64,000 nucleotides of DNA from a virus (IMGVR_UViG_3300049595_004693:14804-78803), one strand, 5' to 3'; positions 17,382-35,767 are shown, numbered from the stretch's first letter. Program-made: numbers and translations. Notes: generated by a model not told the origin, from the letters alone.

Positions 17382-18263
17382 TTATTTTTTACCGTATTGT
17401 GCCAACATATAGTCAGAATAACCCTCATTAGACTCATAGGAATAGCGGTCATAATCGTCCATCACGTCACGACTGCCAAAGGCACGCGCGGCCAATGAAT
17501 CAAGGCTAGTGGTCGCGGTTAAGACTAAAGGTTTAATTTCTTGCTGATACACAATGTCATTACCTTCGAATACCGCGTGTGTGTTATCAAGGATTAGCTC
17601 CGGGTGCTCGACTTTCCACTTCATGTCCTTGGCTACGCGCTCGATGATATCGGTAGTGGTTGCAATAACATATGACCTAATAGTGCGGCACCACGCGATA
17701 TAAAGCGACGCGCGACTATCTCGAATAACGTGCGTCGTGCCTCTCTTGTCTTGAATGATCATCGCATAATAGCCTGTAACATTTTCCTCAATAGCTTCCA
17801 TCCCCCCCTTTTCCCAGTACCTAAGAAGAATTTCTGTATCGCAAGTCGTGGTTAGCTTGGACTTTACTTCGTTAGTAAAGTCTTGCACGACTCCGTTATG
17901 AATTAGCGAAACTTTGTTATTCATGAAGGGGTGGGTGTTCTCGATGGTGACATTATTAGTGCTAAGTCTCCCATGCGCCATGAATGATTTATTGCCTTTT
18001 TGCTTCACCTCTCCGAAGCAATTTCGAGTCTTCTCAATGATTGGTAGCTTGTCGGTGCGCGTATCTTGATTTGTGAATTGCAGAGGTTTCCAGTTGAAAG
18101 GCTTAGTGGTACGCTCACCGCTTATGGTGCCGTCCGATCCTAGAACGGAATAACCAAAACCATCCTTATCACTCAAGGCGCAAACTGCGTCGCGCACGCT
18201 ATTGATAAACTTAGAGTTAACATTCAAATTGCTAGCATCAGTCACCGCGAAAATCTTGCACAT
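17382..18263 (-). CDS. class II (Ntn) glutamine amidotransferase
   Basis: N-terminal Cys2 (MCKIF), DGFG, AHGRLST, NTHPF, HNGVV, CDTE. Confidence 0.92.
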   Translation of the reverse strand: MCKIFAVTDASNLNVNSKFINSVRDAVCALSDKDGFGYSVLGSDGTISGERTTKPFNWKPLQFTNQDTRTDKLPIIEKTRNCFGEVKQKGNKSFMAHGRLSTNNVTIENTHPFMNNKVSLIHNGVVQDFTNEVKSKLTTTCDTEILLRYWEKGGMEAIEENVTGYYAMIIQDKRGTTHVIRDSRASLYIAWCRTIRSYVIATTTDIIERVAKDMKWKVEHPELILDNTHAVFEGNDIVYQQEIKPLVLTATTSLDSLAARAFGSRDVMDDYDRYSYESNEGYSDYMLAQYGKK

Positions 18264-18290
18264 AATAAACTCCTGTTATTGTTATGATTA

Positions 18291-19478
18291 TTAAAAAGGC
18301 ATTCCATCGCTACCCGTAGCGTCATATCCGGGCAATGGTCCTCCGTTAATGACCGCGCTAACGCTACCCTGAAGGCTAGGCGACACAATGACTTGCATCG
18401 GTAGCGTCTGCGTGCTCTCCTCATTGTCGTCTAACACTTGATCAACTTCGGAGGACACCTCGGGGGAGAATTTCGCGACACGTTCGCGGATATATCCCCT
18501 CAAAGTCTCCGATGCGCCGACAAGATGCGCCACAACTTCCATGCTATCAACGCTAGACTTAATAGCCTTGCATTGCATAATGCCCTGAAGCAATTCAATC
18601 CAAGATGCGATTTTAGACGCATCTGTGCTCCCACTATGGCCGCGAATCTCAAGCGTGCCGTACTTGGAAAGGCTATGCATATTCACAAACGCGTAACGCG
18701 ATCCCCCGCGCCTAGCGTTAATAGTAGTGGCGCAAAATCGGTTATCCCGGCGAGACTTAGGCAACATGCGCTTAAGAGCCGGGACACAATGAGCGACACG
18801 GTTAGCCTTGAGAGTCACCATGCGGCTAGACTCCGTGCGCATGTCAAAATGCACATGGAGCCCACAAGTACGGTTAACCCAACACCCTAGCTTATTCAAT
18901 TCTGCGCAAACTTTAAATAGCGGCGACATGTCCGACTTTTTAAAGCTAACGCAGATCTCTTTACCATGTGACTCAGTGCCACACTCACACCGACCGTCAT
19001 TGTCTTCTGTTTCTTCCATGCTACACGAGGAGTCATGGGGATTGAGTGATCCGTCATTTTTAATGGTGACAAATTTACTTAATCCTAAACCCCTGATATT
19101 TTTGGCAAACGCATTTTCCCTAGCCTGAGAAGTGAAAAAACACTCGATTTCTACACTAATCCACTCTCCCTCAAACCCCTCGGGATTTTTGGAGCTATAA
19201 ACTACGCGAGATAGCTCTACGATTTGAGAAACGGACCATTGCCCCTCATTACCATATTGATCAAGCCTATCGGCCAACATGTCGACACCTGCGCTGCGTA
19301 AATGCTTGCGATATGTCTGCAATGAACGCTTTATAACGTCCTTAAGTTCATCGGGCAATTCCCCCTTGTAGTTATCAATCAAAAACTTATAGGCGGGATT
19401 GAGGTTGGCGATAAAAGCGGCTTTACGAGAATTTGACATATTAGCAAGCCTCCCATGTTTCAACGGTATTAAATTCAT
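18291..19478 (-). CDS. putative amidoligase (COOH-NH2 ligase, Amidoligase_2-like)
   Basis: SVEIEC, KNDGSL, GKEI, TCGLHVHFD, RYAFVN, GTLEIR motifs; adjacent to the GATase. Confidence 0.88.
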   Translation of the reverse strand: MNLIPLKHGRLANMSNSRKAAFIANLNPAYKFLIDNYKGELPDELKDVIKRSLQTYRKHLRSAGVDMLADRLDQYGNEGQWSVSQIVELSRVVYSSKNPEGFEGEWISVEIECFFTSQARENAFAKNIRGLGLSKFVTIKNDGSLNPHDSSCSMEETEDNDGRCECGTESHGKEICVSFKKSDMSPLFKVCAELNKLGCWVNRTCGLHVHFDMRTESSRMVTLKANRVAHCVPALKRMLPKSRRDNRFCATTINARRGGSRYAFVNMHSLSKYGTLEIRGHSGSTDASKIASWIELLQGIMQCKAIKSSVDSMEVVAHLVGASETLRGYIRERVAKFSPEVSSEVDQVLDDNEESTQTLPMQVIVSPSLQGSVSAVINGGPLPGYDATGSDGMPF

Positions 19479-19674: not shown

Positions 19675-20112
19675 CTAAGTGATCACACAGCACTCCTTAA
19701 AACCCCAAACTGTAAAGCCATAGCGATGAATTTGAATAAAAGCGGGTTTATAGGTCACCGACCCGCCATTGAATGAACCAGGTTTACCGGCGGCATCTTG
19801 GAAGTACTTGTCGCAGTCTCTAAAAGCCTTTAGAGCATCTTCCTGGCATTTATAGGCGTCGTTAGGCATGTAATAAGATCCTCCCACTAGGCTAGTAAAC
19901 TTTTCAGGGTTACCAAAGCCCAACACCTTGCGTGGTGCATCATAATCAGAGGCATCATCGGAGACGGACACGATGACCACGCTTCCGTTGTCCGCAGTGT
20001 ACCACAAGAGACTAGGAAGCAATGCGGCTAGTGGTCGATACTTCTCACCGCTTAGAGATAATTCGGAAAGGCTTTTAATGGACTCAATGACTGACTTGAC
20101 TTGATTATTCAT
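19675..20112 (-). CDS. hypothetical early protein
   Basis: Likely start ATG 20112 (MNNQVKSV), just downstream of a sigma54 box. Confidence 0.7.
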   Translation of the reverse strand: MNNQVKSVIESIKSLSELSLSGEKYRPLAALLPSLLWYTADNGSVVIVSVSDDASDYDAPRKVLGFGNPEKFTSLVGGSYYMPNDAYKCQEDALKAFRDCDKYFQDAAGKPGSFNGGSVTYKPAFIQIHRYGFTVWGFKECCVIT

Positions 20113-20125
20113 GATTATAAGGTGT

Positions 20126-20141
20126 TGCATCGAGCGGGCCA
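20126..20141 (-). promoter_or_regulatory. sigma54 (-24/-12) promoter A
   Basis: TGGCCCGCTCGATGCA (GG-N10-GC) pointing into the early operon. Confidence 0.65.
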
Positions 20142-20184
20142 ACACAAAACCTTAATGATATCGCGGAATGCTGAGACGGAATGC

Positions 20185-20219
20185 TGTAAAACTTTCAGGC
20201 AGAGTCTAAGCCTTAGACA
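20185..20219. promoter_or_regulatory. tandem 17-bp imperfect palindromes, candidate enhancer (UAS) of promoter A
   Basis: TGTAAAACTTTCAGGCA-g-AGTCTAAGCCTTAGACA; a related copy lies at 21267-21301. Confidence 0.5.
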
Positions 20220-20228
20220 CCTAGTCCC

Positions 20229-20465
20229 TATATATATATATATATATAAGAATATAATTATAATACATATATTAAGTATTATTAAATAGAATATAATACA
20301 TATTAAGTATAATATAATAAGTATTAAGTAGATATTAATAGTATATAGTAACTATTATTAGTATATAGTTAACTTAACTAATATAAAGTAACTACTAGTA
20401 TATAGTAGCTACTAAGATATATTAAGTATTTATATATAATATGAATCACTTAATAAAAATTAAGT
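20229..20465. repeat. very AT-rich tract with short direct repeats, candidate replication origin
   Basis: (TA)n run, TATTAAGTA x4, TAGTATATAGT x3; non-coding. Confidence 0.5.
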
Positions 20466-20578
20466 GAACTTAGAGAGAGGCTCTAAGAGGATATAAAACA
20501 CTTGAGCGAAAGCGCAAGTGTGTGAAAGGACAGGGGAATGAGAGATGAGAAAAGATGGAGGTACTAGCTCTGCAATTT

Positions 20579-20944
20579 CTATGCCAAGTCCCAATATTCC
20601 TCACCCAATAAATAACTCGACTTGGTAGGATACTCGGTAACACTCAATGTCCCCAACACTTCGGAGTCACCATTGAGATAAAACCTAGTAACCTTATGAT
20701 TTTCAATATAAATTAAACTTGACAACATAGCTTTCTTAGCAATATCAAGTACTTGATTCTCTTGATAAGAGTCAACACAAATAACTAGAATAACACATTG
20801 ACCATTCTGTGTCAAGTATTGCAAAGGTATATTGCAATCTTTAAGCCAATTATAGGCCCATTGAGTAGCCTCTAAGTTAGTAGAACTAGAACGCTCTGAA
20901 CGATTAAGATTTAAAATATATCCTTTATGCTCTAATGCAATCAT
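20579..20944 (-). CDS. hypothetical protein
   Basis: Likely start ATG 20944 with AAAGG SD. Confidence 0.6.
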   Translation of the reverse strand: MIALEHKGYILNLNRSERSSSTNLEATQWAYNWLKDCNIPLQYLTQNGQCVILVICVDSYQENQVLDIAKKAMLSSLIYIENHKVTRFYLNGDSEVLGTLSVTEYPTKSSYLLGEEYWDLA

Positions 20945-20964
20945 ATCATAGCCTTTCGTATAAG

Positions 20965-21117
20965 TCAAGCAGCTATAGACTCATTGTCGACCATGTTGGC
21001 CAACTTGTCAATCTCTAAAGCTAGCAGATTAGCTATCACATAATCGGTAGGACAAGCCTCAAGAGAGTCTCTTAGGGCTTTGATACTTCTGATTAGTTCT
21101 AATACTTCAGGTGTCAT
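20965..21117 (-). CDS. 50-aa helical hypothetical protein
   Basis: Manual translation MTPEVLELIRSIKALRDSLEACP...ESIAA; TTGACT-16-TATCCT upstream. Confidence 0.55.
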   Translation of the reverse strand: MTPEVLELIRSIKALRDSLEACPTDYVIANLLALEIDKLANMVDNESIAA

Positions 21118-21209
21118 ACAATTACCACGATATATCCTTAGGATATCAGGGAATGATATTGAGTCAAGGTTATTTTGTGGACTCTGATAACTCTCATGCT
21201 ATAGGGTAT

Positions 21210-21225
21210 TGCATAGGCAATGCCA
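21210..21225 (-). promoter_or_regulatory. sigma54 (-24/-12) promoter B
   Basis: TGGCATTGCCTATGCA (GG-N10-GC). Confidence 0.65.
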
Positions 21226-21266
21226 GAAATAAACTAATGATAATGCTATGTGTCAATGGAGATTAG

Positions 21267-21301
21267 TGTAGAACTTTTAGGCAGTGTATAGTTCTTATGC
21301 A
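21267..21301. promoter_or_regulatory. tandem 17-bp sites, candidate enhancer (UAS) of promoter B
   Basis: TGTAGAACTTTTAGGCA-g-TGTATAGTTCTTATGCA, at a similar offset from its box as in promoter A (57 vs 59 bp). Confidence 0.5.
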
Positions 21302-21314
21302 CTCATAGTTTTTA

Positions 21315-21496
21315 TGCAAGGACTATACCACAATAGCTTGGCATATATCTTGCAATAAAACATTTTGATTGGCAAGGGAATTGCTATAGCAAGAATCGTG
21401 CCAGATTAGAGCTGGCATAGAGCTTGCAGGGGGAATGCTGTGTGCAAGTATAGTGCCAGGCATGGGGATTGCAGGGGGGGTGCAAGAAGTGTGCCA
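21315..21496. promoter_or_regulatory. array of eight sigma54 -24/-12 boxes in mixed orientation
   Basis: Starts 21315(-), 21339(+), 21370(+), 21388(-), 21413(+), 21443(-), 21458(+), 21481(-); all fit (T/A)GG(C/T)A-N6-TTGC(A/T). Confidence 0.85.
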
Positions 21497-21586
21497 GGGG
21501 GGGGGTAGGGTACTTTTTACGGGGATTAAATATCGATAGTGATATCCAACAGATAAGTCATTTTTCTCACAAATTACCGTGTTACC

Positions 21587-21596
21587 TAACAAGTTA
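21587..21596 (+). promoter_or_regulatory. late-promoter motif TAACAAGTTA (leaderless HNH gene)
   Basis: Exact 10-mer with ATG 5 nt downstream. Confidence 0.75.
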
Positions 21597-21600
21597 GTGT

Positions 21601-22515
21601 ATGGCAACATGGATGAAAAAAGAATGTTCTAAGTGTAAGAAATCACTAAGCTATGGCATAGTGAACACCTACTCTAACAGCTCAGTATACGCTATTAATA
21701 AGCAGCTAAAGCCCTGGAACGGCTCTATATGCCCTCGATGCAATAGAGAAAAGAAAATAGCCGAGAAGAAGCTCGTAGTACTTGAGAACATAAAATGCCA
21801 CACCTGTCAATCAGAATTTACCCCTCGCAATCGTCAGGCAAAGTATTGCTCTTCTAGATGTAGAGTGGTCATGACTATGCGGCGTAAAATAAAGCCGACT
21901 AAGCCAAAAAACGACTGTGTAGTGTGCCTAACACCCAACTCGGCCACGAGATTATATTGCGGCAGCCAGTGTCAGTCAAAAGCTGCATACCTTAGAAACA
22001 AGGTAGAACGAGTTTGTATCGAGTGTGGCAACTCTCCCGCTAAAAGCAAATACTGCTCCGCTACGTGTAGGTCAAAAGCTAACAGACGGCCCGCGAAACC
22101 CAGATCGCATAAAGTAAAAAAATGTGTTACCTGCGGGTCGGAGTTCCGCCCTCGCGGAAAGCAGTTATATTGCGATAATCCCTGTCGCCGACCAAAACCA
22201 TCTATAAATCGAGAGAGTCTTAGAAAGTATAAAAAAATAGCTAGGAAGAAAAGAAAGCTGTGGGAACGTAGGGCATGTCCTCGTTGGGTTAAAGGAAGCG
22301 ATTTATTAAAAATAGAGGCTTCTAAGCCTGGGCCAGAATATCATCTAGACCACATCATCCCACTAAAGCACCCTTTGGTGTGTGGACTTCACGTACCCGA
22401 AAATCTCCAATGGCTCAAAAAAGAAGAGAATGAGTTTAAGAACAATAAGTGGGACGGCACAGAGACTAACGAAAGTTGGAAGGTGGAGTTTGAGAAGTCC
22501 CGTTCTAAGTCGTAG
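21601..22515 (+). CDS. HNH endonuclease with tandem Zn-finger repeats
   Basis: Repeated CxxC...YCSxxC units; HLDHIIPL...CGLHVPENLQ...EN..KNN. Confidence 0.9.
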   Translation: MATWMKKECSKCKKSLSYGIVNTYSNSSVYAINKQLKPWNGSICPRCNREKKIAEKKLVVLENIKCHTCQSEFTPRNRQAKYCSSRCRVVMTMRRKIKPTKPKNDCVVCLTPNSATRLYCGSQCQSKAAYLRNKVERVCIECGNSPAKSKYCSATCRSKANRRPAKPRSHKVKKCVTCGSEFRPRGKQLYCDNPCRRPKPSINRESLRKYKKIARKKRKLWERRACPRWVKGSDLLKIEASKPGPEYHLDHIIPLKHPLVCGLHVPENLQWLKKEENEFKNNKWDGTETNESWKVEFEKSRSKS

Positions 22516-27500: not shown

Positions 27501-28178
27501 TTAGGAATTTTGCCACATCGCAGAGCCTAGCTCAGGATATTGCTCAGATACGACAGATTTGATGGCAAGTGCGATATCTCTATGCTCTTTTTGTGTGGTA
27601 GGATCAGTGCGTACCTCGATATAGTGCAACCAGCTTCTAACGGATCCGGTCATAAATAAGGTGGTTTCTGTGGAAAGAGGAAGCACCATGCGAGCCTGTT
27701 CCTTTGCCACTCCCTTCTGAAGGGCCGTATTGTAAATTTCCATAGATTTTTCAGCTAGTTGCTTCTGAGCCTCTGCAAACCACATCTGGTCTTCGTCACT
27801 CATGTCGTCGATGCTATTTTGGCGGTTCTTAGAGTCCTGCCTTCTAGCCTTATACGCGATAGTATTAGTAGCTACTTGGTATCTTTGAGAAAATTCTTGA
27901 AAAACAAACGATCGGTGGCGCAAAATCTGAGCGGCTATTGCGCGGCTTGTAGTTATCTTGAAGGTAAGGTAGGCGTGCTCAAACGGACTCCAGTGCTTGT
28001 GCTTAATTAGATATCTAAGTAGCTTGGGCGCCGTCTCGTGGTTCATTTGATTAGTGGGATTACTCACCCGCGCCACATAAGCTATGAACTCATTAGGGCT
28101 CATCCCGTCATGAGCACCCGGCTGTGGGACGGCGGAGGTCTGGGCTACGAGCTGTACGCTAAAAGACGTGTCTTTCAT
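27501..28178 (-). CDS. thyX: FAD-dependent thymidylate synthase
   Basis: HWSPFEH, RAIAAQILRHRSFVFQEFSQRY, EQARMVLP, TQKEHR. Confidence 0.96.
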   Translation of the reverse strand: MKDTSFSVQLVAQTSAVPQPGAHDGMSPNEFIAYVARVSNPTNQMNHETAPKLLRYLIKHKHWSPFEHAYLTFKITTSRAIAAQILRHRSFVFQEFSQRYQVATNTIAYKARRQDSKNRQNSIDDMSDEDQMWFAEAQKQLAEKSMEIYNTALQKGVAKEQARMVLPLSTETTLFMTGSVRSWLHYIEVRTDPTTQKEHRDIALAIKSVVSEQYPELGSAMWQNS

Positions 28179-28458
28179 GGGCGATCCTCAGTTGCATTGA
28201 TGTCCACTTCAAAGGTTGGATTGCCGGGAGCAGTTTTAGGGCGGCCGACTCGTCGAGCACCACCTGACACTCTTCACCTCTTGCGATGTCCTTACCAAAT
28301 TGCTTAGCCGCACTTTGATTATACACTATGAATAGATAAAATCCTGGAGAGTATACAGACACCTCTCCACGTCTACCAACAAGCACAGCCTCTTTAGTTT
28401 TTTTGTGCTCTACACAGGAATAGCCTAGAATTTTTTTAGAACATTCCTTCCAGTTCAT
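28159..28458 (-). CDS. hypothetical protein
   Basis: Coupled ORF. Confidence 0.6.
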   Translation of the reverse strand: MNWKECSKKILGYSCVEHKKTKEAVLVGRRGEVSVYSPGFYLFIVYNQSAAKQFGKDIARGEECQVVLDESAALKLLPAIQPLKWTSMQLRIAHERHVF

Positions 28459-28676
28459 GCATCCTCATAATAACGAATCGTATACCATCCTTGAGTGGTG
28501 CGAACAGAGAGTGTTCCTTGCGTATAATCGGTAGCCTCTACTAATCCTAACTGCATTTCTCCAGAGTTGGCCATAAATCTAAAAGATTGCCCTAGAATTG
28601 GCAAAGATCGTAATGTGCCGAAATCCAAATAGTAATACTGATCGTTTTCGTATTTATAAATATACCCATCAATCAT
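28455..28676 (-). CDS. hypothetical protein
   Basis: Coupled ORF. Confidence 0.6.
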   Translation of the reverse strand: MIDGYIYKYENDQYYYLDFGTLRSLPILGQSFRFMANSGEMQLGLVEATDYTQGTLSVRTTQGWYTIRYYEDA

Positions 28677-28929
28677 CCGTAACCTCGTCGTATTTGTAAA
28701 AAGCGATCACGCTGTCTGCAATCTTCTTAGCTTCTTCTTTTCCAGTCATCTCATAAATATACAATGCTGCAGCAGCTACCGGAATGCCTGTCATAATACT
28801 GGCATTATTTATAGCGTCCATGATTGGAATAGTGTTGCCTCTATGTTCCATATAAGATTTGATAACTGGAAAAGCTACTCGATAGAGTTTTAAGCTAAGC
28901 CTCACTACAAGCCACCATGTCTCGCGCAA
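28669..28929 (-). CDS. hypothetical protein
   Basis: ORF in the operon; start uncertain. Confidence 0.55.
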   Translation of the reverse strand: MRETWWLVVRLSLKLYRVAFPVIKSYMEHRGNTIPIMDAINNASIMTGIPVAAAALYIYEMTGKEEAKKIADSVIAFYKYDEVTDD

Positions 28930-29065
28930 TTTTATCTAATAGCTCAGAAAAATGCTCATCTTTTTCTTTAGTAAGTGGTCCAAACGACACTTCTTCCTCA
29001 ATAGCACGCAGCGCTTCTGTAAAAGTCATTTTTTCTAAAGCATAATCAACACAGATTCTACACAT
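28895..29065 (-). CDS. small hypothetical protein (MCxxC start)
   Basis: Likely start ATG 29065. Confidence 0.55.
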   Translation of the reverse strand: MCRICVDYALEKMTFTEALRAIEEEVSFGPLTKEKDEHFSELLDKIARDMVACSEA

Positions 29066-29256
29066 TATGAAGTTACCGCTAAAAATAAAAGAATTAAACC
29101 TACCGCCACTAGTCCCCAAAGTGCTTTTATTTCTTCTTTGTTCATTGACGAGTCCCCAAACCATCACAACCAGCTATATCAGGATTTTTTTTACAACGAG
29201 TAGTCACTTCATCTGTGATATCTTTGCCGTTATGATAATATCTTACAGAAACACAA

Positions 29257-29523
29257 CTACTCGTAAATATCGCCATTAGCATCAATAGCATCATCTTCAT
29301 ATTCCGAAACCTGCCTACGATAAAATTCTAATTTAGCTGACTCAAGTACGCCAATGATTTCATTGAGCGCCGTATAATTAACCTTTCCAACAGTATTCAG
29401 CCTAGCCAAACACAATTGAGAAATAAGGTAATTAAGTTCTCCGGGAGATTCAATCGGACCGTCAAAAAATCCAGCCACCAACGGTTCTAATTCCTGGCGC
29501 AGCTCTTGTTTAATATACGGCAT
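29257..29523 (-). CDS. conserved phage protein of unknown function
   Basis: MPYIK...PGELNY...LESAKLEFYRR...YED....NGDIY, a recurrent phage family pattern. Confidence 0.8.
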   Translation of the reverse strand: MPYIKQELRQELEPLVAGFFDGPIESPGELNYLISQLCLARLNTVGKVNYTALNEIIGVLESAKLEFYRRQVSEYEDDAIDANGDIYE

Positions 29524-29743
29524 CCTCTAACTCCTTCATAAACTTAGTCATCTTTTTGGTGCATGTGGACCAATCTTTGGTTTGCTCTACACATCCTAGT
29601 CTATACGATTCTGCAGCACTTGTCAAGTGGGCTCTTTTAAGATTCTCTGGATCGTATATGATCGAGTGGGCGTATAAATCTAGCAACACCCCCACACTAA
29701 ATGCCGCGGTCAATCTTACGGATGTCGGAATCGACCATTTCAT
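29510..29743 (-). CDS. small membrane-anchored protein
   Basis: N-terminal hydrophobic segment. Confidence 0.55.
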
Positions 29744-30680
29744 GTATCATCTCCTCAAATGAAATCAAAGGCTCCCAACCCAACACATTGAGAGCTTTTG
29801 AGGCGTCCCCTAAAAGAACATCTACCTCAGATGGACGCTTTAGCGTTTCGTCAACAACTACGTAATCTCTCCAATTAAGGTCAACTGAGGAAAATGCTAC
29901 GTCTAGCAAATACTCTACGGAGTAGGTACACCCGGTGGCTAAAACATAATCATCCGGCCGTTCGTGTTGTAGCATTTTCCACATTCCCGATACATAATCT
30001 ACAGCATGTCCCCAGTCTCTATGGGCGGAAAGATTTCCTAAGTGCAGCTTATCTCTGCGCTTTCTTAAAATCTCCGCCACCGCCTTGGTCACTTTGCGAG
30101 TTACAAACTCTTCACCCCTTCGCGGCGACTCGTGATTAAAAAGGATCCCACTACAAGCAAATAATCCGTAGGACTCTCTATAGTTCTTAGTGATCCAGTG
30201 TGAAAATAACTTAGCACATCCGTATGGAGATCTAGGATAGAACGGCGTGGTCTCATTCTGAGCAGGTTCCTGTACTTTTCCATACATCTCTGAAGAAGAT
30301 GCCTGGTAAAATTTAATGTCGGCATTCTTTAGGTCGGTGCCATGAACCGTGCGAATAGCTTCAAGTATACGTAGTGTTCCTACTCCAGTAATGTCTGCAG
30401 TAAGTACCGGGGTATTAAAGGAGGTGCCCACGTGACTTTGCGCGGCCAAGTTGTACACCTCTTGAGCACCTGAAACCTCTAGAGCGTTGGTAAGCGAGCC
30501 GCTGTCAGTGAGGTCGGCTGAAATAAATTTAATATCTTTCTCAATATGTGCAATATTATCTAGATTGGGCCGGGACGCGCGTCGCACAGTACCAAAAACT
30601 TCATAATTTTTTTGCAAGAGAAGTTCAGCCAGATATGACCCATCCTGACCTGTAATTCCAGTAATCAATGCTTTTTTCAT
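29697..30680 (-). CDS. gmd: GDP-mannose 4,6-dehydratase
   Basis: [49 protein letters not shown]. Confidence 0.97.
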
Positions 30681-31873
30681 TCTGTATATCCTAATAGTAC
30701 ATCAACATATTCATGAATTGCGTAAGCCGGTAGTTTGTGAGGAGGAAGCCCTATATATAATCCAGCGCTATGCACTCTTTCCGCCCCAGGAAGCGTATCC
30801 GCTGGAGGGAATACAAAAGTGGTTTCTTGAAGCATGGGCTGTCGTAAGAAGTTGCCGCTCACGATAGGGCGATTATCCATGCCATTCTTAAGAAGATAGT
30901 CAGAATATTTCTTTCTATCATAATCTGTCATGAAAGGAAATCCAAACCAGGCGGCCGTGACACCGCGAGAAGCCAGAGGAAAGGTGAGCTGTCCCTTGAA
31001 TCGGTTGTCGGAAGTGAGAGCTTCGATCAGCGCTTCGCGATTATACACCCTGGCTGCATTCATTTCTTCAATCTTCTTAAGCTGCACCACCCCAATCGCA
31101 GCGTTGATGTCGGTTGGTCGCAAATTAAATCCAGCTTCTAAAAACAAGAATCTAGGGTCTACGTCCGGAGCATATCGTGTATACATTTCTTTTAGATCTT
31201 GGCGAAGATCACGCACCCACCCGTGACTCCTAAGCATTAAAAGCAACGAATAGATTTGATGGTGATTAGTAACGACGTATCCGCCCTCACCCGTTGTGAT
31301 ATGGTGAGAAAAGTAAGAGCTAAACGTACCCATAGCCCCAAACGTGCCTAGCTTTTTGTTATTAAACGAAGAGCCCATACTTTCGCAGGTGTCTTCAATT
31401 AGCAGCAGTTTATTATCACTTACAAATTCCATAACGGAATCCATGCTAGCGCTGTTGCCTAAAATATGTACCGCTAAAAGAGCTTTAGTTTTATCTGTGA
31501 GTTTTGAACGAGCGGAGGCTAAGTCGATGTTTAAAGTTCTATGATCAACGTCTACGAATACAGGTTTAAGACCTAGTTGAATAATAGGAGCGACCGAGGT
31601 GGCCCAAGCGACGGCTGGCACAAGTACCTCGTCTCCGTTTTCTAGCCTACGCTCTTTAGGAAAATAGGAGCTTTTGGTGGCGGCCAAAGCCAGTAAGTTA
31701 GCGGAGGATCCGCTGTTTACCATGATGCAATACTTAGCTCCTACGTATTTCGCAAACGCTTCTTCCATCTCTTTGGTTTTAGGTCCCATAGTAAGCATCC
31801 CGCTTTTGATGACAGAAATAGCGGCTTCTTTTTCGGCTGCAGTAATCGTATCGAACGCCATTGGGAATTTCAT
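30677..31873 (-). CDS. DegT-family PLP enzyme, ColD-type GDP-4-keto-6-deoxymannose 3-dehydratase
   Basis: [32 protein letters not shown] with His in place of the Schiff-base Lys, RSHGW. Confidence 0.85.
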
Positions 31874-32955
31874 TTTAGCAGAATCTCCAGAGATTTGCCA
31901 TAAGCTAATCCATTTAGCGGATTAAACCCGACAACATTACCTTCATAACGATTAGAAGGAAAATCATCGAATAAAAACTCATCGCGCATAACCACACTCC
32001 AATCAATCTTACTAGAGGCAGGGGAAGCGGATTCTGTGATGAGAGAGGCTGAATGCAAATCTGCATGAGCACTAGTATGCAGTACATAATTAAAGAACTT
32101 TTGATTAACTACTCCGGATTCTTTCATAAGAGCTGCAAACATTGGATTTGCTGAGGAGTAACTCTGTGCAGCTACAAATCGCATACCAAGTTTTGCAAGT
32201 TTACTTTGAAAAGCTTTGATTATGAGTTGATAACCAACCATACAAGTGTATTCAATAAAATAAAGTCGACGATTTTTAGCGTGATATGTAATAGGTGCTA
32301 TAAAAAGCAAAAACCAACCTTCTAAAAACAGTTTTTTAGTAAAGATCTTTTTAAAGATTTTGCGGTTGGTAACTAAATAGGCGGCTGCCAACACTCCGCT
32401 AAAAAATACAGCATCCACTCCAGTAGAAATAACTCTTTGTTTACCGTAAGGAGTATTATTATATACAGTATAATTATTACGAATAAGCTTAATTACGGCT
32501 CTAATAAAATGACGTTTTACCTTACGCGATATTGGACCTTGAGTGATACCTAGACATACTCCAAGCACAGCTTCAATTGGAGTAGTAACATCTCCACCTC
32601 CACTATCGTTGCGTGTAAATACGCCATATTTATCAATAAAATTAGAAGAACCGCTAATAAGTGCTGGAGCAGGGTTGGCCCAAACCATAGCGCCGTGTCG
32701 AATAGCTTGATGGTCTCCTACCCCATGAATATTAGAAAAAGTTCTACGGGTTATATAGGAAGCTCCTATAGTTTTGCCCGGACGAACATAATCAGTAGCC
32801 ATAGATCGCAGTTTTAAAATATCTTTATAAATAACAGAAAGATCAGGACGAGCTGTATAGTTGCCAAAAGGAATACGAGCTTGATATATGCGATAAAAGC
32901 CAACTAATGGAATTAAAATAGCCTTGAGTGGTAAAGTTAAATAAAACCAAAACAT
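31870..32955 (-). CDS. hypothetical membrane-associated protein in the sugar cluster
   Basis: 361 aa with several hydrophobic segments; no motif recognised. Confidence 0.7.
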   Translation of the reverse strand: MFWFYLTLPLKAILIPLVGFYRIYQARIPFGNYTARPDLSVIYKDILKLRSMATDYVRPGKTIGASYITRRTFSNIHGVGDHQAIRHGAMVWANPAPALISGSSNFIDKYGVFTRNDSGGGDVTTPIEAVLGVCLGITQGPISRKVKRHFIRAVIKLIRNNYTVYNNTPYGKQRVISTGVDAVFFSGVLAAAYLVTNRKIFKKIFTKKLFLEGWFLLFIAPITYHAKNRRLYFIEYTCMVGYQLIIKAFQSKLAKLGMRFVAAQSYSSANPMFAALMKESGVVNQKFFNYVLHTSAHADLHSASLITESASPASSKIDWSVVMRDEFLFDDFPSNRYEGNVVGFNPLNGLAYGKSLEILLK

Positions 32956-33386
32956 TAGAAAAAAGTTCCTCTTTTGGAGTCTGAAATAATTTTAATACGT
33001 AAATTAATACTATTTTGCAAAGGCGCGTTAGGAAATTCTTTGTCTAATACGTGCGATGAAGTATGCGCATAATATACATCAAACTCTTTGAATAAACGAA
33101 TACCTAATTTATAGTTATATTCTACAGTTTGATGACTTCCTTTAGCCATTAGTGTGGTAACGTTATTTTCATATAATAAATATGTGTTAATAGAAATGTC
33201 TAAATTTAGATCCAGTCTAGATTCTGGTGCAACAGGAGACCACGGATGTCGAGTAACCCCATAGTACCAAAAATGTTCTAAATTAAGATTATCCACTTTA
33301 AAAAGTGGGTCGGCGTTGGCTGGCAGCGACGGTAATAAGATTAAGATAAGAAGAAACAAATTTTTGATACGATCTTTCAGTTTCAT
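32955..33386 (-). CDS. exported protein, possible small outer-membrane beta-barrel
   Basis: Signal peptide (ANA/DP), amphipathic strands, C-terminal Phe; start uncertain. Confidence 0.6.
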   Translation of the reverse strand: MKLKDRIKNLFLLILILLPSLPANADPLFKVDNLNLEHFWYYGVTRHPWSPVAPESRLDLNLDISINTYLLYENNVTTLMAKGSHQTVEYNYKLGIRLFKEFDVYYAHTSSHVLDKEFPNAPLQNSINLRIKIISDSKRGTFF

Positions 33387-34371
33387 ATAGCCGCTTAGCC
33401 TCTTTCCCAAACGATTCTCGTTTGTCTTTATCAGTATACAACAAATCTAGCTTTTTGGCAAGCTCTTTGTAGTTTTCATTAGGAAATATATACCCAGTCT
33501 TTCCGTCAAGCACCGCCTCATCAAGCGCCCCCACATCAGAGCTAATTACCGGCTTACCTAGAGCCTGCGCCTCAATGACTACAGTAGCAATAAGCTCGTC
33601 TCTAGAAGGCATAATCAGCGCGTCGCAGTGCTGCAGTACGGCGGCTTTGGAAGACTCGTTGAGCACGCCAGTAAATTTTACAGACTTAATACCTCTAGTG
33701 TTAAGAGTTTCATTAAGTTTATTAAAGTAATTTTGATCTAGAGTTCTGCCAGAGATAATAACCTTGACATTAGTTCGCACCTCTTCCATAGCTCGTATGA
33801 GAACATCCTGCCCCTTACGAGGCTCGATGCTTCCTAGCTGCAAAACGTAGAGCGCTTCGGGGTCTTTCTCAAAAGGAACAACGTAGTTGTCGCTAGGTTT
33901 TATTGTAGTACCTGTATAAATTACATTAGCCTTATCTAAATCTATAAATCTTGCGTAGTTTTTTACGGACCATTTAGAAGGAAATATCGTGAACGTGGCC
34001 ATCCTAAGAGCGTTTCTAATAATTGGATTGTTGGTTGTCATCTGAACGCCAAACTCAGGCTCGTGTATTCCCCAAAGTACGGGTGTCCTAGCTGCGTTAA
34101 CGCCATAAATACAGTTATACCCAATAAGTGTGTTCACTAATGCAACATCAACTTGTTGGGCTAGGGCGTAGCTGGCCGAAGGGTCGGTGAGAATGCTTGG
34201 AATTACTCTAACCACTACTCCCATCTTTTCGTATAGTTCTTTTTGTGGTCCGTCTGACGCAGACACCACAAATACTTTATAACCTAGCCGGACTAGCTCA
34301 GAGCTTAAATTAAAGCATGCAGCAGGGACGCCACTGAAGGCAAGCTCATTTACGATCATTAAGATTTTCAC
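33298..34371 (-). CDS. GT-B glycosyltransferase (GT4-like)
   Basis: MKILMI...SGV, GSIEPRKGQD, PSRDE..ATVVIEAQALGKPVISSDVG. Confidence 0.93.
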   Translation of the reverse strand: MKILMIVNELAFSGVPAACFNLSSELVRLGYKVFVVSASDGPQKELYEKMGVVVRVIPSILTDPSASYALAQQVDVALVNTLIGYNCIYGVNAARTPVLWGIHEPEFGVQMTTNNPIIRNALRMATFTIFPSKWSVKNYARFIDLDKANVIYTGTTIKPSDNYVVPFEKDPEALYVLQLGSIEPRKGQDVLIRAMEEVRTNVKVIISGRTLDQNYFNKLNETLNTRGIKSVKFTGVLNESSKAAVLQHCDALIMPSRDELIATVVIEAQALGKPVISSDVGALDEAVLDGKTGYIFPNENYKELAKKLDLLYTDKDKRESFGKEAKRLYETERSYQKFVSSYLNLITVAASQRRPTF

Positions 34372-35354
34372 TTAATTAAGCTCCTAAAGATTTCTTCTCG
34401 TTGTTTATTAACGATAGTTAAATTAAGATTTGTCTTAATATATTCTAAGCTCTCATTTCTAAGTTTTAGTAGTTGCTTAGGAGAAGTGAGCAACATATCA
34501 AGCTTTTCTTGAAAGTCGTCCACATCTTTATATCTAGTAGCGCCAGGTACGCTCCACGCTTCCCAGTCAGGGACTAGCGCCGCCGCTCCTGCCATAGTCC
34601 CTTCTAACCAGGCAATGTTTGATTTAGATTTATTAAATTTATTATCCTTGAGCGGTACAAAAATTAGATCTGGTCGAAGCAGTCCCAAGTTTTTATGATA
34701 GCTGTACCAAGAACGACCTCCGTGAAATGTGGCCGCGGGGAGAGCTTCTTGTAAGAACCACGGTCTATCACCATAAATATGCCAACGCCAATCATCATGC
34801 TGTGCGGCATTTTCTTTAATAGGGGCCAAATGGCTCATCAAATCAGCTACGTGGCTGGTAGATCCGCGCCACAGCACGTTCTTGTATATTTTATTTTTTT
34901 CGTAAATAGGGATAAATCTCTCGTCCCATGCGTTAGGAACAACCGAAATGTTTTTTGAAAATGGCCGGAGCTGCTCCGCAAGATGGTTGGTGGTCACCAT
35001 CGTGTGATCGGCGAGTTGCAGGCATTTACGATATGATTCTTGAATAGCTGGTTGATTATATGTGCCAGCTACGGGGTTGTCTGGCGTAACGCAGGAAAGA
35101 TCGTCATCTAGATCTAACACGATGGGCTTATTCATCTCCTTTACCAAAATCATCGTCTCTAGGTGCTTTGGTGTAAACGGTCGATGCATAAAAATAAGAT
35201 CGTGTAAAGAAATATCTACCCAATTGGGTGTAACGCCCTCCGGAATATAGACAATCTCAAATTTATCCTTAAGCGCCGTCAGCGGTCCCAATGCTCGCCA
35301 AGAAGAAACTGGGTCGTGAGGAATAGGTGATATTACTAAAATTTTGGCCAGCAT
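34368..35354 (-). CDS. GT-B glycosyltransferase, phage type
   Basis: DLDDDL, VVPNAWD, WRGSTSH, PLKDNKFNKSKSNIAWLE. Confidence 0.85.
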   Translation of the reverse strand: MLAKILVISPIPHDPVSSWRALGPLTALKDKFEIVYIPEGVTPNWVDISLHDLIFMHRPFTPKHLETMILVKEMNKPIVLDLDDDLSCVTPDNPVAGTYNQPAIQESYRKCLQLADHTMVTTNHLAEQLRPFSKNISVVPNAWDERFIPIYEKNKIYKNVLWRGSTSHVADLMSHLAPIKENAAQHDDWRWHIYGDRPWFLQEALPAATFHGGRSWYSYHKNLGLLRPDLIFVPLKDNKFNKSKSNIAWLEGTMAGAAALVPDWEAWSVPGATRYKDVDDFQEKLDMLLTSPKQLLKLRNESLEYIKTNLNLTIVNKQREEIFRSLIK

Positions 35355-35512: not shown

Positions 35513-35767
35513 ATGAAGATTAATTTAATTAGTATTGCTTTTATAGCGTTTGGCGTAAAACTGATGTTTTCGCCCGGAACTAGTGAAAGCGTGGCTTTTG
35601 TGTCCGTAGCCGCTCTGCTGGGACTGCAAGAGCTTTACATTCAGCGTCTATTTTCTAAAAAACAAACTCAACAGCTTGAAGAAATGCAGAAGTCGGTGGA
35701 TCAGCTAAAAACCGAAATGTCCGCTATTAAAATTAGCCAAAGCTGGAAAAATTTAAAGAATGGATGA
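35513..35767 (+). CDS. two-TM membrane protein with coiled-coil tail
   Basis: Two hydrophobic helices; AAGGAG SD. Confidence 0.7.
   Translation: MKINLISIAFIAFGVKLMFSPGTSESVAFVSVAALLGLQELYIQRLFSKKQTQQLEEMQKSVDQLKTEMSAIKISQSWKNLKNG

Follow-up and report, generated by a model that had tools for sequence, protein, structure and literature searches.

The region spanning positions 20126-21496 of the 64,000-nucleotide (nt) window analysed here carries a dense cluster of twelve sigma-54-type (-24/-12) promoter boxes. The window comprises bases 14804-78803 of a 78,803-bp uncultured freshwater virus record (IMGVR_UViG_3300049595_004693), which is estimated to be 93% complete. With slightly more confidence than doubt, we propose that this region is the main control region of a leftward block of replication and metabolism genes, that it would be sigma-54-dependent, and that it would need a factor acting in trans. 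The sigma-54 reading of the boxes themselves is well supported by their enrichment and by comparison with related phages. Two of the boxes, A and B, each lie downstream of a pair of 17-mers that are conserved candidate regulator sites; an enhancer role for these sites is unproven.

Eleven of the twelve boxes match TGG-N9-TGCW exactly. This pattern occurs 40 times in the 78.8-kb genome, and 11 of the occurrences fall within the 1,371 bp of 20126-21496, where 0.51 would be expected (Poisson P = 1e-11). Seven lie in the 182-bp core at 21315-21496 (expected 0.07). When sites are ranked by a weighted consensus score, all of the top-scoring sites in the genome fall in this cluster, and the perfect form TGGCAC-N5-TTGC is found three times genome-wide, always in the core array. 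An extended sigma-54 consensus, yTGGCACGr, was reportedly compiled by Barrios et al. in 1999. Positions that were not used in selecting the boxes fit this consensus, with C or T before TGG in 11 of 12 boxes and A or G after the hexamer in 10 of 12. The features of the region are collected in Table 1. All four boxes outside the core point leftward, in the same direction as the genes. The initial annotation had reported boxes A and B as isolated GG-N10-GC elements on the minus strand. Their positions are confirmed, but they are not isolated, being two of twelve in a single enriched cluster, and with two mismatches each outside GG and GC they are among its weakest members.

Table 1. Features of the candidate control region and neighbouring genes, in window coordinates.
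Feature	Position	Strand	Description
Box A	20126-20141	minus	TGGCCCGCTCGATGCA; predicted start near 20115
Box B	21210-21225	minus	TGGCATTGCCTATGCA; predicted start near 21199
Leftward box	20833-20848	minus	TGGCTTAAAGATTGCA; within the 129-aa open reading frame (ORF)
Leftward box	20571-20586	minus	TGGCATAGAAATTGCA; overlaps the stop codon of the 129-aa ORF
Core array	21315-21496	both	eight interleaved boxes, four in each direction; lies where the leftward genes and the rightward HNH gene diverge
Core leftward boxes	21481-21496, 21443-21458, 21388-21403	minus	all perfect TGGCAC-N5-TTGC
Core leftward box	21315-21330	minus	TGGTAT...TTGCA
Core rightward boxes	21339-21354, 21370-21385, 21413-21428, 21458-21473	plus	the box at 21458-21473 reads AGGCAT...TTGCA
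Leader motif	21497-21517	minus	AAAGTACCCTA then C9; directly upstream of the first leftward box
Tandem 17-mers, unit A	20185-20219	minus	distal palindrome TGTCTAAGGCTTAGACT, proximal TGCCTGAAAGTTTTACA
Tandem 17-mers, unit B	21267-21301	minus	distal TGCATAAGAACTATACA, proximal TGCCTAAAAGTTCTACA
Terminator-like hairpin	20490-20521	minus	CACUUG...CAAGUG, then U-run UUUUAUAU; predicted to end the upstream transcription unit
AT-rich non-coding stretch	20240-20480		240 bp; contains a (TA)n run and four iterons of ~20 bp, TAGTATATAGTAnCTA
First gene after unit A	19675-20130	minus	145 aa from ATG 20112, 151 aa from ATG 20130
Amidoligase and glutamine amidotransferase	17382-19478	minus	amidoligase 18291-19478, glutamine amidotransferase 17382-18263; farther along the leftward operon of unit A
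Two small ORFs	20579-21117	minus	50 aa and ~129 aa, flanked by unit B and the terminator; matched no family
HNH gene	21601-22515	plus	cysteine-rich protein with a C-terminal HNH nuclease; the four rightward boxes point at it

The cluster is conserved among related phages. DNA identical to the window at every letter was found in contigs of four lake or freshwater metagenomes (2016-2024), which therefore offer no natural variation to read. Phages with portal proteins 47-59% identical to that encoded here all carry sigma-54-type boxes, often in clusters. The array of one of them, G009, corresponds to the present array box by box, with offsets from the first box of 93, 111, 142, 166 and 271 in this phage and 42, 60, 98, 121 and 253 in G009. 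Across seven box pairs from the two phages the GG and TGC positions are identical at 35 of 35, the other consensus positions at 32 of 42, and the spacer at 12 of 35 (Fisher P = 9e-10 for GG and TGC against the spacer), a footprint that is partly circular because the boxes in both genomes were picked by GG and GC; the matching offsets are the only independent part of this comparison. Both weak boxes have better counterparts in G009. That of B (TGGCATACATGTTGCA, at a matching offset) has TTGCA in place of ATGCA, and that of A (TGGCACGCCTCATGCT) has TGGCAC in place of TGGCCC, each an improved fit to the consensus. Box B also has counterparts in the relatives L295 and L302; in both, the control region stands at the head of the gene block diverging from the terminase. 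G002 has two tandem boxes about 180-250 bp upstream of an operon ending in amidoligase and glutamine amidotransferase. Relatives identified through the nucleotidyltransferase and amidoligase (at most 62% identity) were also considered and do not carry the cluster.

In this phage and at least five relatives, the first box is immediately preceded by a leader motif consisting of AAAGTA, an optional base, CCCTA and a run of C; the motif precedes boxes in L273/L289, L276/L301, L295/L303/L309, L302 and L310. As a separate observation, the form AAAGTA(N)CCCTACCCCC is present in 34 viral contigs, and in several of those that have no boxes nearby it makes up one arm of a perfect hairpin with GGGGTAGGGTACT. 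The G-rich strand of the leader region in this phage (G7, G9, GGG and GGGG) could form a quadruplex.

Box arrays are also found well beyond these relatives. More than 120 viral contigs contain tandem perfect boxes, against a chance expectation of about 0.3. Their GC content spans 32% to 65%, a spread more easily reconciled with a universal host protein than with one specific to phages. Among 578 boxes from 78 non-redundant viral loci, the extended-consensus positions are T or C in 74%, G or A in 82%, and purine in 64%. At these loci, one-way arrays are aimed at a gene on the same strand (29 versus 12) and mixed arrays are located in divergent gaps in 11 of 22 cases. Face-to-face pairs show an offset of 17-21 nt in 48 of 64 instances across phages, an arrangement that would give divergent transcripts with overlapping 5' ends. 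No protein encoded near the array of this phage is common to the 120 other array loci (L025-L144). The large terminase is the commonest nearby gene at those loci (38 loci in 14 groups, median 1.4 kb), and many arrays therefore head packaging and structural genes, as in the Pseudomonas phage YuA; in the present phage the large terminase lies 15 kb from the array. Linear contigs of ~11-13 kb (L028, L037, L098, L105, L108, L109, L131, L143 and L144) carry two tandem perfect boxes that point inward ~60-135 nt from the contig ends, at both ends in all except L028, for which a protein-primed type-B DNA polymerase was confirmed. A search of a limited set of papers found no description of sigma-54 box arrays.

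Boxes A and B belong to a more elaborate unit. The ~110 nt around A and the ~110 nt around B are copies of a single duplicated unit (they align locally with a score of 31, against 17.9 +/- 2.5 and a maximum of 29 in 300 shuffles), in which two tandem 17-mers are followed by the box and by a start region, TA-R-YCATGA. The start region is held at a fixed distance from the box, and the predicted sigma-54 start therefore falls on R. The 17-mer pairs described in the initial annotation are found where it placed them, at -70 to -104 from the predicted starts. The proximal 18-mers of A and B are identical at 16 of 18 positions and have no further copy in the window. Because A and B are a single duplicated unit, the resemblance between their 17-mer pairs cannot count as independent evidence when this genome is taken alone. 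Alignment of A and B with the units of L295 and L302 reveals three blocks that are conserved, with intervening DNA that differs in length and cannot be aligned. The first block contains the tandem 17-mers, with a distal site resembling TGTCnAAGnCTTnGACA and a proximal site resembling TGyCnAwAAGTTyTACA; the second is an ATATCA/ATCATTA patch; and the third is the box together with TA-R-YCATGA. The 17-mer block is thus kept over 35 nt in L295 and L302; the 24-35 nt that separate this block from the box cannot be aligned and vary in length. Describing the 17-mers as tandem palindromes was an overstatement. Only the distal 17-mer of A (GTCTAAG-g-CTTAGAC) is a real palindrome; dyad symmetry is weak or lacking in the remaining three. 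Symmetry at the distal sites reaches 7 of 8 positions in A and 6 of 8 in L295, and at the proximal sites 2-5 of 8.

The sigma-54 holoenzyme cannot open DNA alone and requires an ATP-driven activator. A search with PF00158 (enhancer-binding activators) gave no match in this phage or in five relatives, which agrees with the initial annotation that no enhancer-binding protein is encoded. A search of this phage with PF04552 (sigma-54), in which the relatives were not included, likewise gave no match. Since the holoenzyme cannot act alone and the phage has no recognisable activator, firing should need a factor supplied in trans. A phage AAA+ activator has been proposed in a T4-like phage (preprint 10.64898/2026.10.06.757011), and a divergent AAA+ protein of the present phage might conceivably fill that role.

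We also looked for the 17-mers in bacterial genomes. Among 301 Bdellovibrionota genomes, 28 contain the palindrome TGTCNAAGNCTTNGACA, with 36 occurrences in total against 9 of a reversed control; among 301 Pseudomonadota genomes it was seen twice, against 3 for the control. The enrichment in Bdellovibrionota means that a regulator of this phylum probably recognises the palindrome; a link to sigma-54 activation is not supported. Ten Bdellovibrionota sites were examined, and these are located at or between gene ends, beside unrelated genes. The initial annotation had suggested searching candidate hosts for the 17-mer upstream of sigma-54 promoters, and none of the ten sites had a canonical sigma-54 box within 300-400 nt. 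A variant, TGGCAT-N5-TTG(A/G)A, was seen near two of the ten. At the loci L273 7555-7575, L312 and L315, TTGCA is replaced by TTGAA or TTGGA (as in TGGCAC-N5-TTGAA); such variant boxes are present in the relative G002 and, downstream of the palindrome, in two Bdellovibrionota genomes.

The proximal 17-mer has 57 sites in Bdellovibrionota, and its control has 26. Roughly 20 of these 57 sites (7 of 12 fetched loci) read TGCCGAAAAGTTTTACA, and at 11 of the 12 fetched loci the motif lies in the promoter of one gene family and has a sigma-28-like look. This enrichment is not counted as independent support. The spacing in the phage proximal site, AAG-N11-GCC, does not fit sigma-28 (N14). The Bdellovibrionota loci L326-L337 carry the sigma-28-like sequence TAAAG-N14-GCCGAAAAGTTTTACA before a single gene family, present in many genomes, whose protein begins MINWQDMGKLHV; this sequence resembles the phage proximal 17-mer at 15 of 17 positions.

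There are weak hints that the host lies in or near the Bdellovibrionota. These are the enrichment of the palindrome, the phage aminotransferase, whose best cellular matches (46-50% identity) are to Bdellovibrionota and Pelagibacter assemblies, and the nearest cultured phage by portal protein (28% identity), which infects Silvanigrella. The three Bdellovibrionota assemblies with the best aminotransferase matches each encode Sigma54_DBD. A BLAST search of 20000-21700 against five Bdellovibrionota genomes returned chance-level short matches only.

Beyond the partial circularity of the G009 footprint, several observations weigh against a sigma-54-dependent control region gated in this way. A and B are weak boxes, with TGGCCC in A and ATGCA in B. 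The predicted start of A lies 3-4 nt before ATG 20112 and leaves no ribosome-binding site, and gene callers choose ATG 20130, inside box A, for the downstream gene. Box A overlaps a sigma-70-like promoter that scores 10 of 12 and has a perfect TATAAT, and its G009 counterpart can also be read as TTGGCA-16-TATATT. The face-to-face boxes of the array are 18-30 nt apart, and simultaneous occupancy or firing of all of them is impossible. G009, whose array is the closest match among the relatives, lacks the 17-mers, and at the Bdellovibrionota palindrome sites the canonical boxes are missing, as described above. Finally, known activator sites have the form TGT-N10-ACA for NifA, TGTC-N10-GACA for GlrR and TGCACC-N5-GGTGCA for NtrC, and the 17-mers, which read TGT-N11-ACA and TGTC-N9-GACA, fit none of them. 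The suggestion of an NtrC/NifA-type arrangement is borne out in distance, -70 to -104 being suitable, and not in sequence. The wider proposal of gating by a host activator is partly supported: in its favour are the enriched sigma-54 elements and their retention in relatives, the recurrence of the tandem 17-mers before a box in L295 and L302, and the lack of a recognisable encoded activator; the 17-mers, however, match no known consensus and are missing from G009.

The 17-mers may have nothing to do with enhancers, and could be a leftover of the promoter-unit duplication or operators of a phage-encoded regulator. We regard this as rather unlikely, although it draws on the duplication of the ~110-nt unit and on the absence of the 17-mers from G009. 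The proximal 18-mer yields 11 single hits in viral contigs, which is about chance level, and none of these adjoins a box. Furthermore, neither unit has a strict IHF consensus match in the interval from the 17-mers to the box; a one-mismatch version is present in B only. A passive remnant or private operator is harder to reconcile with the retention of the 35-nt block in L295 and L302 next to DNA that cannot be aligned, or with the excess of the palindrome in Bdellovibrionota and its chance-level occurrence in Pseudomonadota.

An explanation that we consider unlikely is that A and B are ordinary sigma-70 promoters (TTGGCC-17-TATAAT and CTGGCA-17-TATAGC) in which GG-N10-GC is incidental, or that sigma-54 holoenzyme blocks an overlapping sigma-70 promoter, the 17-mers being ordinary repressor or activator operators. 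Sigma-70-like elements are indeed present, as the initial annotation had noted, with TTGGCC-17-TATAAT at 20142-20114 and TTGACT-16-TATCCT at 21167-21140. The strength of the box A match with its 17-nt spacer, the alternative reading of the G009 counterpart, and the host palindrome copies upstream of genes that have no sigma-54 box are all compatible with this explanation. However, the corresponding reading of box B scores only ~8 of 12, and initiation 7 nt past the TATAAT of A would place the start inside the gene, beyond both candidate ATGs. The unit of L295 keeps the box and the start region, TAG-CATGA, at the fixed distance, yet has no -10-like hexamer. The sigma-70 reading is therefore not conserved in L295, which argues against a purely sigma-70 interpretation. 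Ten other sigma-54 boxes in 1.4 kb would also be left unexplained.

The boxes, chiefly those of the eight-site array, might instead be docking sites, which would hold or soak up host sigma-54 holoenzyme, and so blunt stress responses or load polymerase near an origin, or which would bind a phage protein sharing the pattern TGGCA-N6-TTGCA. The packing of array sites 15-30 nt apart on both strands, the common 17-21 nt face-to-face offset (a composite palindrome of ~35 bp that could suit a dimer), the lack of an encoded activator and the origin-like AT-rich stretch within the cluster would all be in keeping with docking, as would the stable, non-firing binding of sigma-54 holoenzyme at many E. 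coli sites (PMC4591121). We nevertheless think it distinctly improbable, because arrays aim at genes above chance and mixed arrays prefer divergent gaps, because the unselected flanking bases follow the sigma-54 consensus and no new one, and because the motif recurs in unrelated phages across a wide range of GC content with no common neighbour gene, which points to a universal host protein.

The sigma-54-dependent control region can be compared with known systems. A preprint (bioRxiv 10.1101/2023.10.13.562163) cites Ceyssens 2008 for sigma-54-dependent promoters in phage YuA, and reports that one sigma-54-like promoter, P015, was found again by start-site mapping. YuA is reported to be like the present phage in having no RNA polymerase of its own, in using host sigma-54 -24/-12 elements and in encoding no recognisable activator; it differs in having few single promoters, which serve the particle-formation and lysis region and were tested with an rpoN mutant. 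The present phage has twelve clustered sites at a replication and metabolism block, an eight-site two-way array and a conserved 17-mer unit, all known from sequence only. The bacterial promoters glnAp2/NtrC, nifH/NifA, pspA/PspF and glmY/GlrR share with it the GG-N10-GC boxes, the extended consensus, and paired sites at ~-70 to -105. As at glmY, there may be a sigma-70 promoter overlapping box A, and a paper on glmY/glmZ is said to list overlapping sigma-70 and sigma-54 promoters in Enterobacteriaceae. Unlike the bacterial enhancers, the phage 17-mers are one base off the NifA and GlrR spacings and dissimilar to the NtrC site, are good palindromes in one case of four, lie 18 bp apart centre to centre, and have no strict IHF site. 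The non-transcribing and intragenic sigma-54 sites of E. coli (PMC4591121) are similarly of consensus grade and need not serve a gene, and two of the phage boxes fall within an ORF or at its end. In E. coli, single sites are dispersed over the chromosome, whereas those of the phage are closely packed and form an array that is conserved across relatives.

In the mechanism that we favour, the phage would rely on host RNA polymerase, and the twelve sites would bind the host sigma-54 holoenzyme. The eight-site array would work in both directions, leftward into the small ORFs and rightward into the HNH gene. A and B would be sigma-54 promoters of a special duplicated type, with unit B firing behind the array. 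Given the terminator-like hairpin and the 240-bp AT-rich stretch that lie upstream of A, the operon of A would need a promoter of its own. Unit A would thus restart transcription after these elements and drive the first gene, then the amidoligase, and then the amidotransferase. The trans-acting factor would most simply be a host protein bound at the 17-mers. A broader and decidedly tentative possibility is that phage arrays, including the face-to-face pairs at 17-21 nt, are a conserved sigma-54 docking control device that is absent from bacteria. The arrays might then act as two-way promoters or as polymerase-loading platforms fired by a non-classical factor, and the extra single promoters of this lineage might be gated by a host regulator of TGTCnAAGnCTTnGACA, the motif enriched in Bdellovibrionota.

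The DNA between the boxes has further features. The AT-rich iteron stretch looks like a replication origin, as judged from its base composition and repeats. It lies between a leftward box with the putative terminator and unit A, an arrangement that recalls promoter-plus-unwinding-element origins, and G009 has an AT-rich gap at the matching position. Folding of 20440-20575 gives z = -5.5. The minus-strand RNA of this segment, which lies 3' of the box ending at 20586, contains three hairpins and begins with a CU-rich tract that includes CCUCC. It could be a ~70-nt sigma-54-driven RNA ending at the terminator, or merely the 3' end of the upstream operon.

The genome encodes DNA polymerase, a primase-helicase, ribonucleotide reductase, ThyX, dUTPase, terminase, a portal protein and tail proteins, and no RNA polymerase gene was found in it. 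The genes between 35354 and the left end point leftward, and those for structural proteins point rightward, beginning at 35760. Database searches returned no relatives of the first gene after unit A. The HNH gene is the sole rightward gene served by the array. Its product has about five cysteine-rich repeats (CxxC...YCSxxCR) N-terminal to the nuclease, and matched no Pfam family and no solved structure. An Rfam scan of the window gave no match, and no tRNA genes were found. The segments 17382-19478 and 27501-35354 together encode an epimerase, an aminotransferase, two glycosyltransferases, ThyX, and the amidoligase and amidotransferase, a set that would suit hypermodification of DNA bases.

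Transcription from sigma-54 promoters is switch-like, with no firing before an ATP-driven activator acts. Placing part of the replication and metabolism genes behind sigma-54 would tie the phage programme to a host signal or to a phage factor. To our knowledge, YuA is the only phage for which sigma-54-dependent promoters have experimental support. The present phage and its relatives have control regions that can be matched to one another, and this lineage allows the sites, a candidate regulator site and a target operon all to be named; direct tests would therefore be possible given a host or a surrogate.

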